Assembly: GCA_013336275.1 (NCBI GenBank)
Contig: JAAXUA010000001.1
Location: 78,167 to 142,166, forward strand
Length of the DNA: 64,000 nucleotides
From: Candidatus Falkowbacteria bacterium
Lineage (GTDB): Bacteria; Patescibacteriota; Patescibacteriia; Patescibacteriales; GWE2-39-37
Direction of reading: 5' to 3'
Below, in pieces: positions 3,949-64,000 of this stretch (its first letter is position 1; each line of letters opens with the position of its first letter). A program made the position numbers and the translations under genes. The notes under the pieces were generated by a model, which worked only from the letters and a program-made list of their open reading frames with translations, was not told the origin of the DNA and did no database searches.

Positions 3949-4503
3949 ATGAACACCTACATCCAAGAAAAACAAGGAGAATTCATCAAGGCCGTTGATT
4001 ATTTCAAAAAGGAAATCGCTGTGTTGCGCACCGGCCGTGCCAACCCAGGCTTGCTTGATGGCATCATTGCCGAAGCTTACGGCGCCAAAACCCCATTGAA
4101 CGGCTTGGCCTCGATCAGCGTTTCCGACTCAAGGAGCATGATAGTCTCGCCATGGGACAAGGCCGTGCTGAAAGAAATCGAGAAGGCGATCGTTGAAGCC
4201 GACCTAGGGTTGGGCGTAGTCAACGAAGGCGACAAGATCCGCCTGACCGTACCGTCCATGACCGAAGAGAACCGCAAGCACTTGGTCAAGAAGCTGAATG
4301 ACCAGATGGAAGAAGCTCGCATCGCTCTGCGCAAGATCCGCGAAGAGGCCAAGCAGACCATCGAAGCGGCCGAAGACGCCAAAGACATTTCCGAAGACGA
4401 TAAATACCGCTTCGTCAGGGAGTTGGACGAGGAAGTGCATCGCCGCAACGAGGAGGTCAAGCAGATCCGCGACAAGAAAGAAGAGGAAATAATGACTATC
4501 TAA
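3949..4503 (+). CDS. frr: Ribosome recycling factor
   Basis: 184 aa containing LRTGRANPGLLDGI...IRLTVPSMTEENRKHLVK...IRKIREE, a canonical RRF sequence. Confidence 0.95.
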   Translation: MNTYIQEKQGEFIKAVDYFKKEIAVLRTGRANPGLLDGIIAEAYGAKTPLNGLASISVSDSRSMIVSPWDKAVLKEIEKAIVEADLGLGVVNEGDKIRLTVPSMTEENRKHLVKKLNDQMEEARIALRKIREEAKQTIEAAEDAKDISEDDKYRFVRELDEEVHRRNEEVKQIRDKKEEEIMTI

Positions 4504-4520
4504 AGTATAGTTCGAAGCGT

Positions 4521-4553
4521 AAAGCGCAAATGTTCTTTGCGCTTTTAGCTTTT
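4521..4553 (+). terminator. Rho-independent terminator after frr
   Basis: Hairpin aaagcgcaaa-tgttc-tttgcgcttt followed by a T-rich tail. Confidence 0.7.
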
Positions 4554-4570
4554 AATTTTACATTCAACTT

Positions 4571-5734
4571 ATGTTTTTAACCGTAGTGACTTTCATATTG
4601 GTTTTGTCTGTTCTCGTTTTCGTCCATGAATTGGGCCATTTCTGGACAGCCAGGAAATTCGGCGTCAAGGCCGAGGAGTTCGGGTTCGGCTTTCCGCCGC
4701 GTGCCTTCGGCATCTATAAATCGGTTTCGGGAAAGTGGAAGAAAGTCCGGGGCAGCAAGGAAGTCGATGACGCAGCTGATACCATCTATTCCGTGAACTG
4801 GATCCCGCTCGGCGGCTTCGTGAAGCTTAACGAAGACGACTCCGAGAGCGACGATCCGAATCATTTCATAAATATGCCGATCTGGAAGCGGGCAGTCGTC
4901 TTGTCTGCCGGCGTTTCGATGAATATGCTTCTGGCTATCGTGCTGATTTCCATCGGGTTGATGGTCGGCATGCCGCAGTCGCTCGATGCGCTCGACAAGA
5001 ACGCCATCATCTCTGATCGCAAGATCCAGATCATGCAGATAATGGATCCGTCACCGGCCAAGAATGCCGGGTTGGCGGTCGGCGACATCATCTTGGGTAT
5101 CGATGGGAAGAAATTTGCCGATTATCCGGCCATTCAGAAATATGTCGACGAGAACAAGGACAAAGAGCTGACTTATCAGATCAAACACGCGGACGAAATC
5201 AAAGATTTCAAGATCAAGCCGGAAATCAGGCAAGAGACCGGCAAGGGCGGCATCGGAGTCGCCTTGACCGAGACCGGCCTGGTCAAATATCCATGGTACC
5301 AGGCGATCTGGCAGGGCATCAGGCAGACTTTCGTCCTGGCCTGGGTGATTCTTGTCGCTTTTTATGACCTGATCAGCGGGCTTGTTACTGGAGGCGGAGT
5401 TTCGGGCGAGGTGGCCGGACCGGTCGGCATCGCTTCTTTGACCGGCCAAGTCGCGCGCATGGGCTTCGTTTACCTGATGCAGTTCACGGCACTGCTTTCG
5501 ATCAACCTGGCAATCATCAATTTTTTACCTTTCCCAGCGCTTGATGGCGGCAGGGTCCTCTTCCTCATAATCGAGAAAATCAAACGCAAACCGGTCCGCC
5601 GCGAGCTGGAAGCCATTATCCATAATTTCGGCTTCATGCTCCTGATGCTCTTGGTCTTGCTGGTGACGTTCAACGATATCGTCAATATCGGACCGGTGCG
5701 GCAGTTCTTGTCGATGGTCAAAGGGTGGTTTTAA
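4571..5734 (+). CDS. rseP: RIP metalloprotease RseP (site-2 protease, M50)
   Basis: HELGH zinc motif at the N-terminus, an internal PDZ segment (GLAVGDIILGIDG) and the C-terminal NLLPFPALDGG motif. Confidence 0.9.
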   Translation: MFLTVVTFILVLSVLVFVHELGHFWTARKFGVKAEEFGFGFPPRAFGIYKSVSGKWKKVRGSKEVDDAADTIYSVNWIPLGGFVKLNEDDSESDDPNHFINMPIWKRAVVLSAGVSMNMLLAIVLISIGLMVGMPQSLDALDKNAIISDRKIQIMQIMDPSPAKNAGLAVGDIILGIDGKKFADYPAIQKYVDENKDKELTYQIKHADEIKDFKIKPEIRQETGKGGIGVALTETGLVKYPWYQAIWQGIRQTFVLAWVILVAFYDLISGLVTGGGVSGEVAGPVGIASLTGQVARMGFVYLMQFTALLSINLAIINFLPFPALDGGRVLFLIIEKIKRKPVRRELEAIIHNFGFMLLMLLVLLVTFNDIVNIGPVRQFLSMVKGWF

Positions 5735-17714: not shown

Positions 17715-17785
17715 GGGCCTATAGTATAGTGGTAGAACAGAGCATTCGCATTGCTCGGGCGGCAGTTCGATTCTGCCTAGGTCCA
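17715..17785 (+). tRNA. tRNA-Ala (anticodon CGC)
   Basis: Manual cloverleaf. Acceptor GGGCCTA/TAGGTCC includes the G3:U70 Ala identity pair. Anticodon arm GAGCA-TTCGCAT-TGCTC, T arm GGCAG-TTCGATT-CTGCC. No CCA is encoded. Confidence 0.9.
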
Positions 17786-17790
17786 CATAC

Positions 17791-17862
17791 GCATCCATCG
17801 TTCAACGGATAGGACGCAAGTTTCCGGAACTTGTAATTGAGGTTCGATTCCTCATGGGTGCA
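17791..17862 (+). tRNA. tRNA-Arg (anticodon CCG)
   Basis: Acceptor GCATCCA/TGGGTGC, anticodon arm CAAGT-TTCCGGA-ACTTG, T arm TGAGG-TTCGATT-CCTCA. No CCA is encoded. Confidence 0.9.
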
Positions 17863-17898
17863 CATAATAAGTGCTAGTTTCCGAGAATAAAATATTTT

Positions 17899-60324: not shown

Positions 60325-62073
60325 ATGTCAAAACGTCATTGGCAGCTCCGTGATAGCATCACCACTGCCGCAACTGACGCCTTGTCGAGTTATGACCAAA
60401 TAACCGCACAACTCCTGTTTAATCGCCACATTACCGAACCAGAGACGGCTGAGGCCTTTCTTTCGTCGGATTACCTGACGTATAAGCATGCGCCTTCGTT
60501 GTTCAGTCAGATCGAAGCCGCAGTCGAACAGATAATCGGGGCGATCAAGGCGGGCAAGAAGATTGTTATTTACGGTGATTATGACGCCGACGGCGTAACC
60601 GCCACCGCCTGTCTCTTGGAGGTGCTGTCGACGCTCAAGGCTAAGACCGACATCTATATTCCCGATCGCGTTTCCGAGGGCTATGGCTTGAACCGCCAAG
60701 CGATCGATGAGATTGCGGCCAATGGCGCTGGATTGATAATTACGGTCGATAACGGCATCCGCAATAAAGAGGAGGTTGCCTATATCAAGTCAATCGGCCT
60801 CGAAGTTATCATTACCGATCATCACGTTCCGCCGCCCGAGGACGAGGCGATGCCCGACTGCTTGGTAATCAATCCGATGGTGGCAACGGAAACCTACCCA
60901 TTCAAATATTTGGCCGGCGTCGGAGTCTCGGCCAAATTAGCTATGGCCATAATCGAGCGCTCGAAATTGGATCAGGAGATGAAGCTTCGGCTGGAAGAGC
61001 GGATACTGGACTTGGTTGCTCTCGGCACGATCGCCGACTGCGTCCCTTTGGTAGGCGAGAATCGGGTCTTGGTCAAGCGCGGTCTCGAGATATTGAACCA
61101 GACGCGTCGGATCGGTTTGAAAGAATTGATCAAGATAGCCAAGATCAACCCCGAACGCTCGATCGACAGCTGGAACGTCAGTTTCCAGCTGACACCTAGA
61201 TTGAATGCTGCCGGACGCATGGATCATGCAAATACCGCTTTCGAATTGCTAGTCACCCGCGACCAGGCTGTGGCCGAGAAATTGGCGCAAGGCCTGAATG
61301 AGCGCAACCAGGAACGGCAGAAGGTGACTGAAGATATAGTGAAGGCGATAATCGCCAACGTCGAGGCAGAGAGGACCGCTGACAAGATAATCGTTGCGGT
61401 GAGTCCTAGCGTCTACGGACAGGGCGAACCCTGGAACGAGGGCACGGTCGGATTGGTGGCTGGGCGGTTGTCGGAAAAATACTATCTTCCCGCGCTTGTC
61501 ATAACCGGAAACAATGATGAAATCAAAGGGTCAGGCCGCAGCATCGATCAGTTCAATCTGATCAAGGCAGTGGAAGCCGTCAAGGATTCGTTGCACAAGT
61601 ACGGCGGTCATGCCGCCGCTTGCGGTTTCAGCATCAAAGGCCAGGAAAATCTGGAGCGTTTCATCAAGGACATCACTGAAGCGGCCAACAAGACCCTTGG
61701 CGGCCTAGATCTGAAGCCAAGCTTGAAAATCGAGACCGAGATTGACTTGTCCTTGGTTGATGAGAGCTTTCTTAGCCAGATCGAGCGATTCGCTCCTTTC
61801 GGTGAAGGCAATCCCCGCCCGGTTTTCTTAAGTCGTCAGATCAATATCGTCGACGTCGCCAAATTGGGCTGGGACGGGCGCCACCTGCGCCTGAAACTCA
61901 GGAACTCAACCTCCAAGGTCAAGACCGCTCTCGGTTTCGGCCAGGCGGAAGAATGGCCAGATTTGAAAATCGGTGATACAATAGACCTAGCTTATTATAT
62001 GGAATTGAACGAATTCAACGGCAAAAGGGAGGTGCAGCTACGCATCATCGACTTGAAGCCATCAAACGCATGA
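60325..62073 (+). CDS. recJ: Single-stranded-DNA-specific exonuclease RecJ
   Basis: DHH motifs (YGDYDADGVT, ITVDNG, ITDHH) and the DHHA1 block GGHAAACG. Confidence 0.9.
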   Translation: MSKRHWQLRDSITTAATDALSSYDQITAQLLFNRHITEPETAEAFLSSDYLTYKHAPSLFSQIEAAVEQIIGAIKAGKKIVIYGDYDADGVTATACLLEVLSTLKAKTDIYIPDRVSEGYGLNRQAIDEIAANGAGLIITVDNGIRNKEEVAYIKSIGLEVIITDHHVPPPEDEAMPDCLVINPMVATETYPFKYLAGVGVSAKLAMAIIERSKLDQEMKLRLEERILDLVALGTIADCVPLVGENRVLVKRGLEILNQTRRIGLKELIKIAKINPERSIDSWNVSFQLTPRLNAAGRMDHANTAFELLVTRDQAVAEKLAQGLNERNQERQKVTEDIVKAIIANVEAERTADKIIVAVSPSVYGQGEPWNEGTVGLVAGRLSEKYYLPALVITGNNDEIKGSGRSIDQFNLIKAVEAVKDSLHKYGGHAAACGFSIKGQENLERFIKDITEAANKTLGGLDLKPSLKIETEIDLSLVDESFLSQIERFAPFGEGNPRPVFLSRQINIVDVAKLGWDGRHLRLKLRNSTSKVKTALGFGQAEEWPDLKIGDTIDLAYYMELNEFNGKREVQLRIIDLKPSNA

Positions 62074-62474: not shown

Positions 62475-62480
62475 AGTTCG

Positions 62481-62554
62481 GACGATTAGCTCAGTTGGTT
62501 AGAGCGCACCGTTCACATCGGTGAGGCCACAGGTTCGAGTCCTGTATCGTCCAC
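62481..62554 (+). tRNA. tRNA-Val (anticodon CAC)
   Basis: Acceptor GGACGAT/ATCGTCC, D arm GCTC-AGTTGGTTA-GAGC, anticodon arm CACCG-TTCACAT-CGGTG, T arm ACAGG-TTCGAGT-CCTGT. No CCA is encoded. Confidence 0.92.
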
Positions 62555-62593
62555 AAACAAAACACACCCGCCAGGGTGTTTTTTGTTTGTGGC
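62552..62593 (+). terminator. Long hairpin/terminator starting inside the tRNA-Val 3' end
   Basis: CCACAAACAAAACACACCC-gcca-GGGTGTTTTTTGTTTGTGG forms a 19-bp stem with one mismatch. The T-rich 3' arm serves as the U-tract. Confidence 0.6.
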
Positions 62594-62714
62594 GGTATCA
62601 GATTGCGAAAACCTGCAAAGGAATGAGTTAAGATCCATAAAATCATTGTTGGTATCTTGTTCAGATAAATTATTTGCGGTTAAAACTTTTCATGAGAGAC
62701 GGGGCTTCCGCCCC

Positions 62715-62774
62715 TTCGAGTCCTGTATCGTCCACAAACAAATCACACCCGCCAAGGTGTTTTTTTGTTTGTGG
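62715..62774 (+). repeat. Direct repeat: second copy of the tRNA-Val 3' end (T-loop to discriminator) plus its terminator hairpin
   Basis: Bases 62715-62774 match 62535-62593 with 2 substitutions and 1 extra T, offset exactly 180 nt. No matching 5' half of a tRNA lies upstream, so it is not a functional tRNA. Confidence 0.85.
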
Positions 62775-62853
62775 TGCAGCAATTGATAATAAATTGTTTA
62801 TGCGGCATCTCTTTGCTATACTGATATGTAGACACGAGATAATTTTAAAGATC

Positions 62854-63597
62854 ATGACGAACTTGCTTTCAATAATGTTCATACTTTCGGTCGGGCCGCT
62901 GGTCGGTTCGCTTATCGGTGTGGTTAAGAAACCCGATCAAAGATATTCTTTGCTGATGCTTTCATTTTCAGCCGGAGTGATGCTTATGGTCTCTTTTTAT
63001 GAGCTGATTCCGGAAAGCCTCCAATTCGTCAATGTTCCCACCATGCTTTTCGGCGTACTGCTGGGAGGTTTGATGATTAATTTCGTAAGCCGGATCATGA
63101 GGCATGTCAAAACCGTGACGCCCTGGTATCAGCTCAAGCGCCGCAAGTTCGAGCGTGTTGTCATTCTTCTTATCGTCGGCATACTCTTCCATAATTTCCC
63201 CGAAGGCATGGCGATCGGTTTGAGCGCCCTCTCTAGCTGGGAGATGTCGTTGAGGGTTGCCTTAGCCATAGCTATCCATGACATACCTGAAGCGATAGCG
63301 ACCACGGTGCCGTATTATCAACTGACAGGGAACAAGCTCCAGTCTGTCCTGGTCACGATGTCTACCTTGGTGCCGACGGTATTCGGTTTTGTCCTAAGCT
63401 ATTATTTCTTCCATGACTTGCCTCTTGATGTAGTCGGTTTTTTCATTGCGATCACCGCCGGAATTATGATTTTTATTTCCGCTTTCGAACTGATTCCGAA
63501 CTCGGTTTTTGCCAGCCGAAATCGCTTGGCCCCTTCAGTCAGTATGGTTTTGGGGGTTATTTCGGTCGTGTTAGTCAGTTTATTAAATGCATATTAG
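62854..63597 (+). CDS. ZIP-family divalent metal (zinc) transporter, ZupT-like
   Basis: Contains HNFPEGMAIG and AIHDIPEAIAT, with 7-8 TM helices. The start is at ATG 62854. The track's 60-aa extension runs through the tRNA-derived repeat and is rejected. Confidence 0.85.
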   Translation: MTNLLSIMFILSVGPLVGSLIGVVKKPDQRYSLLMLSFSAGVMLMVSFYELIPESLQFVNVPTMLFGVLLGGLMINFVSRIMRHVKTVTPWYQLKRRKFERVVILLIVGILFHNFPEGMAIGLSALSSWEMSLRVALAIAIHDIPEAIATTVPYYQLTGNKLQSVLVTMSTLVPTVFGFVLSYYFFHDLPLDVVGFFIAITAGIMIFISAFELIPNSVFASRNRLAPSVSMVLGVISVVLVSLLNAY

Positions 63598-63704: not shown

Positions 63705-63740
63705 TTAGTGGTAAACTATCTTTAAAAATCAATAATTCCA

Positions 63741-64000
63741 AGGCAAGCGGGCAATTGCTGAAATAGTAAAACGCTATTTTAGAGGAAAGTCCGGACTCCG
63801 AAAGAATGAAAATTCTTGAAAGCGATGGTGGCTAACGGCCACGGGGAGAAATCCTACGGAAAGTGCCACAGAGACGATACTAGCCGTCAAAGACGGTGAA
63901 AGGTGAAAAGTGCCAGGGTGTTTTGGTTCTAACGGCATGCCAGTGAACGAAAGCTACTTGGTTCGCACCCGTGTGAACGGGCTGCGTGGCAAACCCCATC
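63741..64000 (+). ncRNA. rnpB: RNase P RNA (bacterial type A), 5' portion, truncated by the window edge
   Basis: Universally conserved P4/CR-I GAGGAAAGTCCGGAC at 63782-63796 and ACGGAAAGTGCCACAGA at 63857-63873. GGTGAAAGGTGAAAAGTGCC and GGCAAACCCCA parallel the E. coli M1 RNA order. The 5' end is approximate. Confidence 0.9.

Follow-up and report, generated by a model that had tools for sequence, protein, structure and literature searches.

A partial tRNA-Val copy in a Candidatus Falkowbacteria genome as the apparent edge of a recurrent tRNA-linked cassette

Behind the tRNA-Val(CAC) gene of a Candidatus Falkowbacteria genome, the 3′ end of the tRNA is repeated on the same strand after a short spacer. 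The gene lies in a 64,000-nucleotide stretch of contig JAAXUA010000001.1 (assembly GCA_013336275.1, positions 78,167 to 142,166), hereafter the window. An initial annotation read this repeat either as the remnant of a deleted integrative element or as a landing pad for such elements. Sequence comparisons instead indicate that the second copy forms the 3′ edge of an intact unit, of the long class, in a recurrent and apparently undescribed family of tRNA-linked cassettes. We propose, with a probability of roughly 0.45, that the working form of the cassette is a folded plus strand, most likely a read-through RNA that mimics the acceptor/T arm of tRNA, and that it is gained and lost as a block.

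The tRNA-Val(CAC) gene occupies positions 62480-62554 on the plus strand, as reported by both ARAGORN and the Rfam tRNA model (70.4 bits), and encodes no CCA. Its T-loop lies at 62534-62540 and is followed by the 3′ strands of the T-stem (62541-62545) and the acceptor stem (62546-62552) and by the discriminator A at 62553. A repeat finder matched 62534-62584 to 62715-62765 at 96% identity, and gapped alignment paired 62534-62592 (59 nucleotides, nt) with 62715-62774 (60 nt), with two substitutions and one extra T between them. The repeated segment comprises the last 20 nt of the tRNA, from the T-loop on, and the terminator-like hairpin that follows; the duplication initially described is thus confirmed, with its start at 62534 and not 62535. 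The 20-mer itself, TTCGAGTCCTGTATCGTCCA, occurs exactly twice in the window, where chance would predict 0.01 occurrences. Both copies and the spacer are also present in an independent Logan assembly of SRR11449212; therefore, the repeat is not an assembly artefact. Outside the block, alignment found likeness at the level of shuffled sequence, and a duplication reaching past the terminator was rejected because the flanks are no more similar than shuffled sequence.

The second copy (62715-62774, plus strand) was recovered by the repeat finder, alignment, RNA folding and a terminator scan. It holds the T-loop, the 3′ strands of the T-stem and acceptor stem, the discriminator followed by C, and a second terminator-like hairpin. 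As the initial annotation had noted, the 5′ half of a tRNA is missing from it, and both ARAGORN and the Rfam tRNA model (even at E ≤ 10) leave it uncalled. The hairpin GGGGC-TTCC-GCCCC (62701-62714) takes the position of the T-stem 5′ strand. The two blocks are separated by a spacer of 122 nt (62593-62714), as short as first described though one nucleotide longer, which contains no credible open reading frame. From start to start, the repeats lie 181 nt apart.

The same junction recurs widely in metagenomes. Contigs were scanned for the exact 19-mer GGGGCTTCCGCCCCTTCGA, which is the 14-nt hairpin GGGGCTTCCGCCCC fused to TTCGA, giving at least 120 loci; the family counts that follow are among the matches listed. 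Seven listed metagenome matches and all three matches from viral contigs were GC-rich coding sequence and were put down to chance, and the scan of viral contigs gave no others. The remaining contigs are AT-rich, and we label them Patescibacteria-like on the basis of the named metagenome-assembled genome of the window, their AT-richness and their tRNA genes without an encoded CCA. An earlier metagenome pattern, a tRNA end followed by CAAAC, gave no match.

In this family, the hairpin lies either 48-85 nt (short class, 41 distinct) or 123-162 nt (long class, 46 distinct) 3′ of a tRNA on the same strand, the distance in the window being 146 nt. Units are carried by 18-19 tRNA isotypes, those seen being Val, Lys, Arg, Glu, Gly, Pro, Gln, Leu, Ile, Tyr, Trp, Ala, Phe, Met, Cys, Asp, Ser, Asn and His. 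Past the hairpin, the next 20 nt reproduce the sequence of the adjoining tRNA from T-loop to discriminator, with no mismatches in about 80% of units. The repeat block mostly ends 21-24 nt in, at the tRNA 3′ end plus C. In a subset that includes the window it runs through the terminator (57-63 nt), and in tandem arrays it runs longer. These arrays comprise two to four units with a period of 172-188 nt, matching the 181-nt spacing of the window; across the family, repeat starts are 107-190 bp apart, with no genes between them. A terminator-like hairpin comes after the copy in 42 of 98 units, compared with 6 of 94 control windows, and in seven units the next tRNA gene comes there. In 94% of copies the discriminator is followed by C (position +21 from the hairpin), and the next two bases are mostly A or C and then A, giving roughly C-A-A. 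Thus the units encode the first C of CCA but usually not the full CCA.

These observations bear directly on the classical explanation. Integrase-mediated insertion into tRNA genes leaves partial tRNA copies at attL and attR, termed 'tRNA gene fragments' in the passage of PMC9897764 that treats them (citing Williams 2002). The segment repeated here, from the T-loop to the 3′ end, is indeed the one duplicated by tRNA-integrating elements, as had been pointed out. Like attL/attR copies, the units carry this repeat on the same strand, 3′ of an intact tRNA, and it bounds a block that is present or absent among relatives. Unlike them, the units share a common non-tRNA core at all their isotypes, carry arms complementary to the tRNA, form tandem arrays, and are geneless and compact, without an integrase or similarity to mobile elements.

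An integrase-borne island that once lay between the repeats and was deleted down to 121 bp (the length first given) would account for the direct repeat, whose extent is the classical signature (PMC9897764). However, the same architecture and size are found at dozens of loci behind other tRNAs, and the hairpin-T-loop junction, far from being idiosyncratic, occurs at no fewer than 120 loci, behind 18-19 isotypes. The spacing of about 180 bp fits one discrete size class of intact units and the period of the arrays, and the arms are tRNA-specific and covarying, which would be unexpected for random deletion remnants. Further, relatives with ZIP transporters (encoded just downstream) that are only 67-88% identical carry an identical junction hairpin at the orthologous locus. 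A blastn search of the spacer against phages and plasmids returned chance-level matches only, lending no support to a phage or plasmid origin. No integrase is present among the genes near the repeat in the window, and no recombinase, reverse transcriptase or nuclease recurs among proteins neighbouring the units elsewhere, the largest cluster covering 8 of about 110 loci. The evidence already contradicts the reading as a scar, and we consider it scarcely credible. Pipelines for genomic islands and tRNA annotation treat a partial tRNA 3′ end as an attachment site or a fragment, which would often be wrong in such genomes.

Family comparison gives the units a common order: a terminator-like hairpin, a 12-nt arm, a loop, a first copy of the T-stem 3′ strand, a spacer in the long class, a linker, the GC hairpin, and the tRNA copy, which runs from T54 to the discriminator plus C. 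Across the family, loops and GC hairpin are conserved, and the helices are specific to the upstream tRNA. The arm is complementary to the T-stem and acceptor 3′ strands of the tRNA. At least 10 of its 12 positions pair behind 44 of the 84 tRNAs followed by the hairpin, compared with 5 of 72 tRNAs that lack it on the same contigs; therefore, arm and hairpin belong together. A small hairpin caps the arm, and its loop most commonly ends in GAGAA (26 of about 60 units). The first T-stem copy is also tRNA-specific, matching its own tRNA at 1.89 of three variable positions, compared with 0.86 for random pairs. In the long class, the extra spacer (median 74 nt, 25% GC) is no more structured than shuffled sequence. 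Median lengths from arm to discriminator are 70 nt for short and 142 nt for long units, with fold z-scores of -2.4 and -3.1, respectively. The linker has G at -5, G, A or T at -4, a purine at -2 and a pyrimidine at -1. It was considered as a copy of the variable-loop region of the tRNA, an idea rejected because its similarity to its own tRNA equals that to random tRNAs.

The window follows this order on its plus strand. Terminator-like hairpin 1 (62551-62592) has arms at 62551-62569 and 62574-62592, then a T-run; it is a 95% complementary inverted repeat, also found by the terminator scan and RNA folding, and its stem takes in the last 3 nt of tRNA-Val. A degenerate 'module A' (62591-62616) contains the arm GGCGGTATCAG, the loop ATTGCGAAAA, for which the family consensus is ..GAGAA, and the first T-stem copy, CCTGC versus CCTGT in the tRNA. 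The arm resembles the complement of the tRNA 3′ strand, and the module is homologous to a stretch of the related locus L102. An AT-rich spacer of the long-class type follows (62617-62690), then the linker CATGAGAGAC (62691-62700, delimited by position counts and by comparison with its own and other tRNAs) and the family-defining GC hairpin, P2, which abuts the T-loop copy.

Some loci depart from the usual arrangement. In L160, about 170-240 nt 5′ of the hairpin, a tRNA-Arg(TCG) homologue has an aberrant T arm (..GGTTGGTGGGGCTAGTCCCTCC..) resembling a fusion of the linker and half the GC hairpin to the T-loop end, which could reflect recombination between unit and tRNA or an assembly error. The unit of L209 stands behind the 3′ half of an Arg-like tRNA without an ARAGORN call (about 90-330 nt 5′ of the hairpin), and the sequence upstream may be an intron-containing tRNA. 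L182 has a 'solo' unit of His type at about 4300-4680, with arm and copy, behind the terminator of a protein gene, and no tRNA lies within 4.6 kb upstream.

The arm deviates from perfect complementarity in a strand-dependent manner. Of the 174 sites at which perfect pairing calls for C, the arm carries T at 81 (47%), whereas of the 445 that call for G only 42 (9%) carry A. Because the C-to-T change is common but its mirror, G-to-A, is rare, G-U or G-T wobble is tolerated on the tRNA-sense (plus) strand only. P1, the 12-bp helix formed by arm and copy, is 68% paired in an alignment of 22 short units, compared with 48-56% in slid controls. At ten of its 12 pairs both partners have changed, amounting to 70 such cells versus 35 in shuffles, none of 500 of which reached the observed value. 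The T-loop that closes P1 is invariant across the family. An alternative small hairpin, H2, also covaries above its controls, and variants of P2 beside T-loop copies include the compensatory GCGGC..GCCGC (in L176). RNAalifold, run on a MAFFT alignment, had found the GC hairpin only, because the arms were out of register; P1 and H2 were then tested explicitly.

Mimics of the tRNA acceptor/T arm include YrlA Y RNAs, mascRNA, viral 3′ tRNA-like structures and minihelix-type substrates of RNase P. Like these, the units combine an acceptor and T-stem 3′ strand helix with a true T-loop and a discriminator followed by C, show covariation, and are of tRNA-like size (median 70 nt). The covarying helix closed by a T-loop is found at the level of the family, the acceptor part of the arm having decayed in the window. 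Unlike known tRNA-like RNAs, the units match no tRNA-like model of Rfam, have an invariant GC hairpin in place of the T-stem 5′ strand, and carry a copy templated on the neighbouring tRNA. Indeed, no family in Rfam 15, the tRNA model included, matches the units (cmscan; window at E ≤ 10, four other loci at E ≤ 1), and the hairpin sequence has no match in open-access literature text. Self-cleaving ribozymes, retron RNA, bridge and omega RNAs, IS200/IS605- and IS91-type ends and BHB introns were also considered, and are unsupported by the Rfam scans or by the anatomy. Group I tRNA introns of Patescibacteria were set aside as unrelated, since they sit in the anticodon loop (PMC13011429).

A functionless by-product of local duplication seems improbable in the light of this anatomy. 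Snap-back and tandem duplication at the tRNA terminator, with similarity then kept by gene conversion, would produce the observed layout of a tandem inversion duplication: the tRNA 3′ end, an inverted copy centred on the terminator palindrome, and a direct copy. Perfect inverted repeats of 15-17 nt in two relatives of the window, L098 and L103, suggest templated events, and the units are dispensable. Such an origin offers no account of the invariant 14-nt hairpin, GAGAA loop and linker shared at 18-19 unrelated tRNAs. Although a tandem inversion duplication holds no foreign sequence, a non-tRNA core of GAGAA loop, linker and GC hairpin lies at the second junction here. Two tight size classes and strand-asymmetric wobble are likewise left unexplained.

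Independent support for the family comes from orthologous tRNA-Val loci, which were found via the ZIP protein and not via the hairpin sequence. Whereas the window, taken as the reference, holds a long unit with the terminator duplicated too, L098/L149 (ZIP 88% identical) holds a short unit with the identical 14-nt hairpin and a copy of its own, differing 3′ end, CCTGGTGCGACCA. L103 (ZIP 67% identical) also has a short unit with the identical hairpin, its copy differing from the tRNA at three positions. L102 (ZIP 85% identical) has a complementary arm, a GAGAA hairpin and a spacer homologous to that of the window, with neither hairpin P2 nor a copy. Finally, L228 (GCA_964443495.1), with an upstream flank 96% identical to L149 and a downstream flank 93% identical to L098, has no unit. 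The junction hairpin, identical in L098 and L103, has thus been conserved across deep divergence.

L228 keeps the synteny of LepA, RecJ, RNase H and tRNA-Val. After the tRNA terminator it carries 3.9 kb with two genes, in the slot that holds the cassette in L098/L149, and the end of this insert coincides with the end of the copy in L098, at the putative promoter motif AAATTGTTTAT...GCTATAAT. This motif is conserved in L098, L102 and L228, 5′ of an M48 peptidase-ZIP pair, and appears to be the fixed right edge of a variable slot. What is gained and lost among relatives is thus the block bounded by the two tRNA-end repeats. Compared with L228, the L098 unit is not bordered by any short duplication. 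Aligning relatives in search of an inserted element, as first suggested, brought to light a block that comes and goes and, in a locus without unit or repeats, the gene pair of L228. A RecJ-anchored scan of species genomes was uninformative, the nearest relatives being 49% identical and having no tRNA beside RecJ.

The two genes of L228 (4816-8329) encode 781 and 387 amino acids, the first with a signal-peptide-like N-terminus, and no repeats flank them. They were considered as mobile-element genes, a candidacy dropped as neither has a Pfam domain. The M48 peptidase gene stands between the tRNA-Val region and ZIP in L098 (228-1817), L102 (196-1770) and L228 (8487-10004), where it overlaps or abuts the ZIP start. 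In the window and L103 it is absent, and the conserved putative promoter would drive ZIP directly.

Insertions of this kind could be taken to favour the second of the initial suggestions, that the copy is a decoy attachment site, a second attB in which elements land or from which they recombine out, sparing the tRNA gene. The suggestion holds in so far as tRNA 3′ ends in such genomes do receive insertions: the gene pair of L228 at the orthologous locus, and a 7.3-kb island behind tRNA-Gln in an unrelated lineage (L144). Prophages of other phyla also use the same tRNA-Val 20-mer within their attachment site. It fails in that neither insertion lies in a copy, since the island of L144 sits at the real tRNA 3′ end and the insert of L228 replaces the whole unit, leaving no repeats. 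The complementary arm, GAGAA hairpin and invariant GC hairpin are not explained either, and we regard a landing pad as highly improbable.

The island of L144 (640-7937, compared with L120) encodes a large serine recombinase of 533 amino acids directly after tRNA-Gln, is flanked by AGCCAA, and leaves the downstream cassette intact. It is a genuine integrative element, unlike the units in appearance and junction. The viral contigs with the tRNA-Val 20-mer, L002-L015, come from other phyla and offer a contrasting case: they hold partial copies of tRNA-Val(GAC), from the anticodon loop on, with the same 3′ 20-mer. They were rejected as relatives, being classical prophage attachment sites of other organisms.

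The main rival to a tRNA-mimicking RNA is a minute integrative DNA cassette, a T-loop-to-T-loop unit of about 110 or 180 bp moved in trans by a structure-recognising recombinase, with crossover at the junction of hairpin and T-loop. The tRNA 3′ end would then be the identity block, and proteins would bind the hairpin and loops on single-stranded DNA in its folded form; the whole would resemble cis-mobilisable elements or integron cassettes. Several features would suit such a cassette. The repeat begins in the T-loop and stops precisely at the tRNA 3′ end, like classical tRNA attachment sites (PMC9897764), and the block by which L098/L149 and L228 differ includes the terminator and equals one repeat period. 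Tandem arrays, sporadic spread over tRNAs and the homogeneity of cores within a genome point the same way. Units at different tRNAs of one contig share 21 of 24 core positions in L111 and 15 of 24 in L108, versus 7.7 ± 2.8 between contigs, this homogeneity being seen in two of the three unit pairs compared. In the 13 cases in which copy and tRNA are unlike, the arm matches the first (tRNA) copy, which would be expected if arm and first copy travel together, and wobble is tolerated on one strand only, much as in sites that work as folded single-stranded DNA.

Against such mobility, no recombinase or other protein tracks the units, and they are not in viral contigs. A cassette carrying the 3′ end of one tRNA would break other tRNAs, yet 18-19 isotypes have intact tRNAs upstream. 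In L103, the T-stem 5′ strand of the tRNA pairs with the first copy and not with the second, the supposed original. The GCCCC left of the T-loop is not symmetric with the T-stem 3′ strand, unlike the core site of a tyrosine recombinase, and the genuine island of L144 uses another junction, AGCCAA just 3′ of the tRNA. We therefore consider a mobile mini-cassette unlikely, although less so than the explanations weighed above.

Known small elements offer further comparisons. Miniature inverted-repeat transposable elements (MITEs) and repetitive extragenic palindromic (REP) sequences are small, non-coding, multicopy and sporadic, as are cis-mobilisable elements, which are flanked by attachment sites and lack a recombinase of their own. 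Like MITE/REP-type repeats, the units are small and non-coding, occur several to a genome, are polymorphic in presence and amplifiable in tandem, and have mutually inverted terminal segments. Unlike them, they always keep to a single side and strand of a tRNA gene; unlike MITEs, their terminal repeats vary from copy to copy, being the 3′ end of the adjacent tRNA, and no short target-site duplication is found. Integron attC sites are folded single-strand sites with conserved boxes R″/R′ (RYYYAAC/GTTRRRY) and variable stems. Like attC, the units interleave conserved unpaired motifs with variable complementary stems, pair imperfectly in one strand, are similar in size and form arrays. Unlike attC, they have no R″/R′ boxes, nearby integron integrase or cassette open reading frames, and their stems are tRNA copies. 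Inspection shows just four complementary bases between the loop consensus ..GAGAAC and the T-loop GTTCGA.

Returning to the folded plus-strand molecule, we envisage that read-through from the tRNA gene would yield a plus-strand RNA in which the complementary arm pairs with the copy. The resulting 12-bp helix, acceptor/T-arm-like and ending in a genuine T-loop, would mimic the tRNA arm and might serve as a processing signal, a decoy or a sensor for tRNA-handling enzymes. The whole block would be gained or lost together, and unequal crossing-over between the 21-nt repeats could amplify it in tandem. Short-patch conversion or palindrome correction, together with wobble-mediated compensatory change, may keep the arms matched to the tRNA. 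In the window, the near-identity of the 59/60-nt blocks, terminator included, would reflect recent homogenisation, with module A partly decayed.

A number of observations weigh against this proposal. The asymmetry of wobble suits plus-strand RNA and single-stranded DNA equally. The arm lies 3′ of a terminator-like hairpin, so that the RNA would hinge on read-through; no positional enrichment of -10 boxes is seen before the hairpin across the family, and a simple scan of the window found no promoter there. In the window itself, arm and copy pair poorly, only 6 of 12 Watson-Crick pairs being reached when the upstream sequence is searched without restriction, with the best match falling inside the tRNA itself; the acceptor part has decayed. 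In the 13 discordant cases already described, the arm agrees with the tRNA and not with the copy. On unit-bearing contigs, an exact-hairpin unit stands at only 4 of 84 other tRNAs, and variant units at about nine more; with about 5-15% of other tRNAs on the same contigs carrying a unit, the sporadic spread speaks more for a dispensable or selfish element than for a host function. Loci were gathered by the exact hairpin sequence, so that conservation of the hairpin is partly circular, L098 and L103, found by protein, being independent support. Lastly, the first making of a tRNA-specific unit is left unexplained by a read-through RNA.

More broadly, and more tentatively, the units may constitute a class of tRNA-templated elements specific to Patescibacteria-like genomes. 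They would be either self-propagating copiers of the 3′ end of their target tRNA, in direct and inverted form, or isotype-specific acceptor-arm mimic RNAs. Were the former true, they would represent a mobility mechanism without known precedent. Were the latter true, the RNAs would interact with enzymes of tRNA processing or tRNA charging in reduced genomes. A covarying, tRNA-linked family absent from Rfam 15 and the open-access literature could represent either a novel RNA that mimics tRNA or a novel mode of targeting tRNA genes. The units also mark plastic slots behind tRNA genes in very compact genomes, which may hold a short, long or partial unit, none, or a 3.9-kb gene pair. Because a unit is short (70-180 nt), its folding, processing and mobility are directly testable.

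Just downstream of copy 2, as first observed, lies the ZIP family metal transporter gene, a flank outside the element (62854-63597, plus strand; Pfam Zip; 100% identical to NTW22037.1 of Candidatus Falkowbacteria), whose start is placed at 62854, or at 62800 by some gene callers. Its likely promoter, TTGTTT, 17 nt and TGcTATACT (62794-62822, plus strand), is deduced from the sequence and alignments, a simple consensus scan not having reported it. The genes and RNAs around the repeat are acetate kinase, MurJ, LepA, RecJ, an RNase HI-like gene, tRNA-Val, ZIP and RNase P RNA, in agreement with the initial remark that no integrase is nearby. ARAGORN finds three tRNAs in the window; the other two, tRNA-Ala(CGC) and tRNA-Arg(CCG), lie 4 nt apart at 17715-17863 and carry no unit, so that one of three window tRNAs has one. 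The class A RNase P RNA (63739-64000, 105 bits) lies directly 3′ of ZIP and is cut by the window end, and relatives have the same gap after ZIP. On the upstream side, the RecJ stop and the RNase HI-like start overlap (ATGA, 62070-62073), and the same pair lies 5′ of tRNA-Val in L228 and L149.

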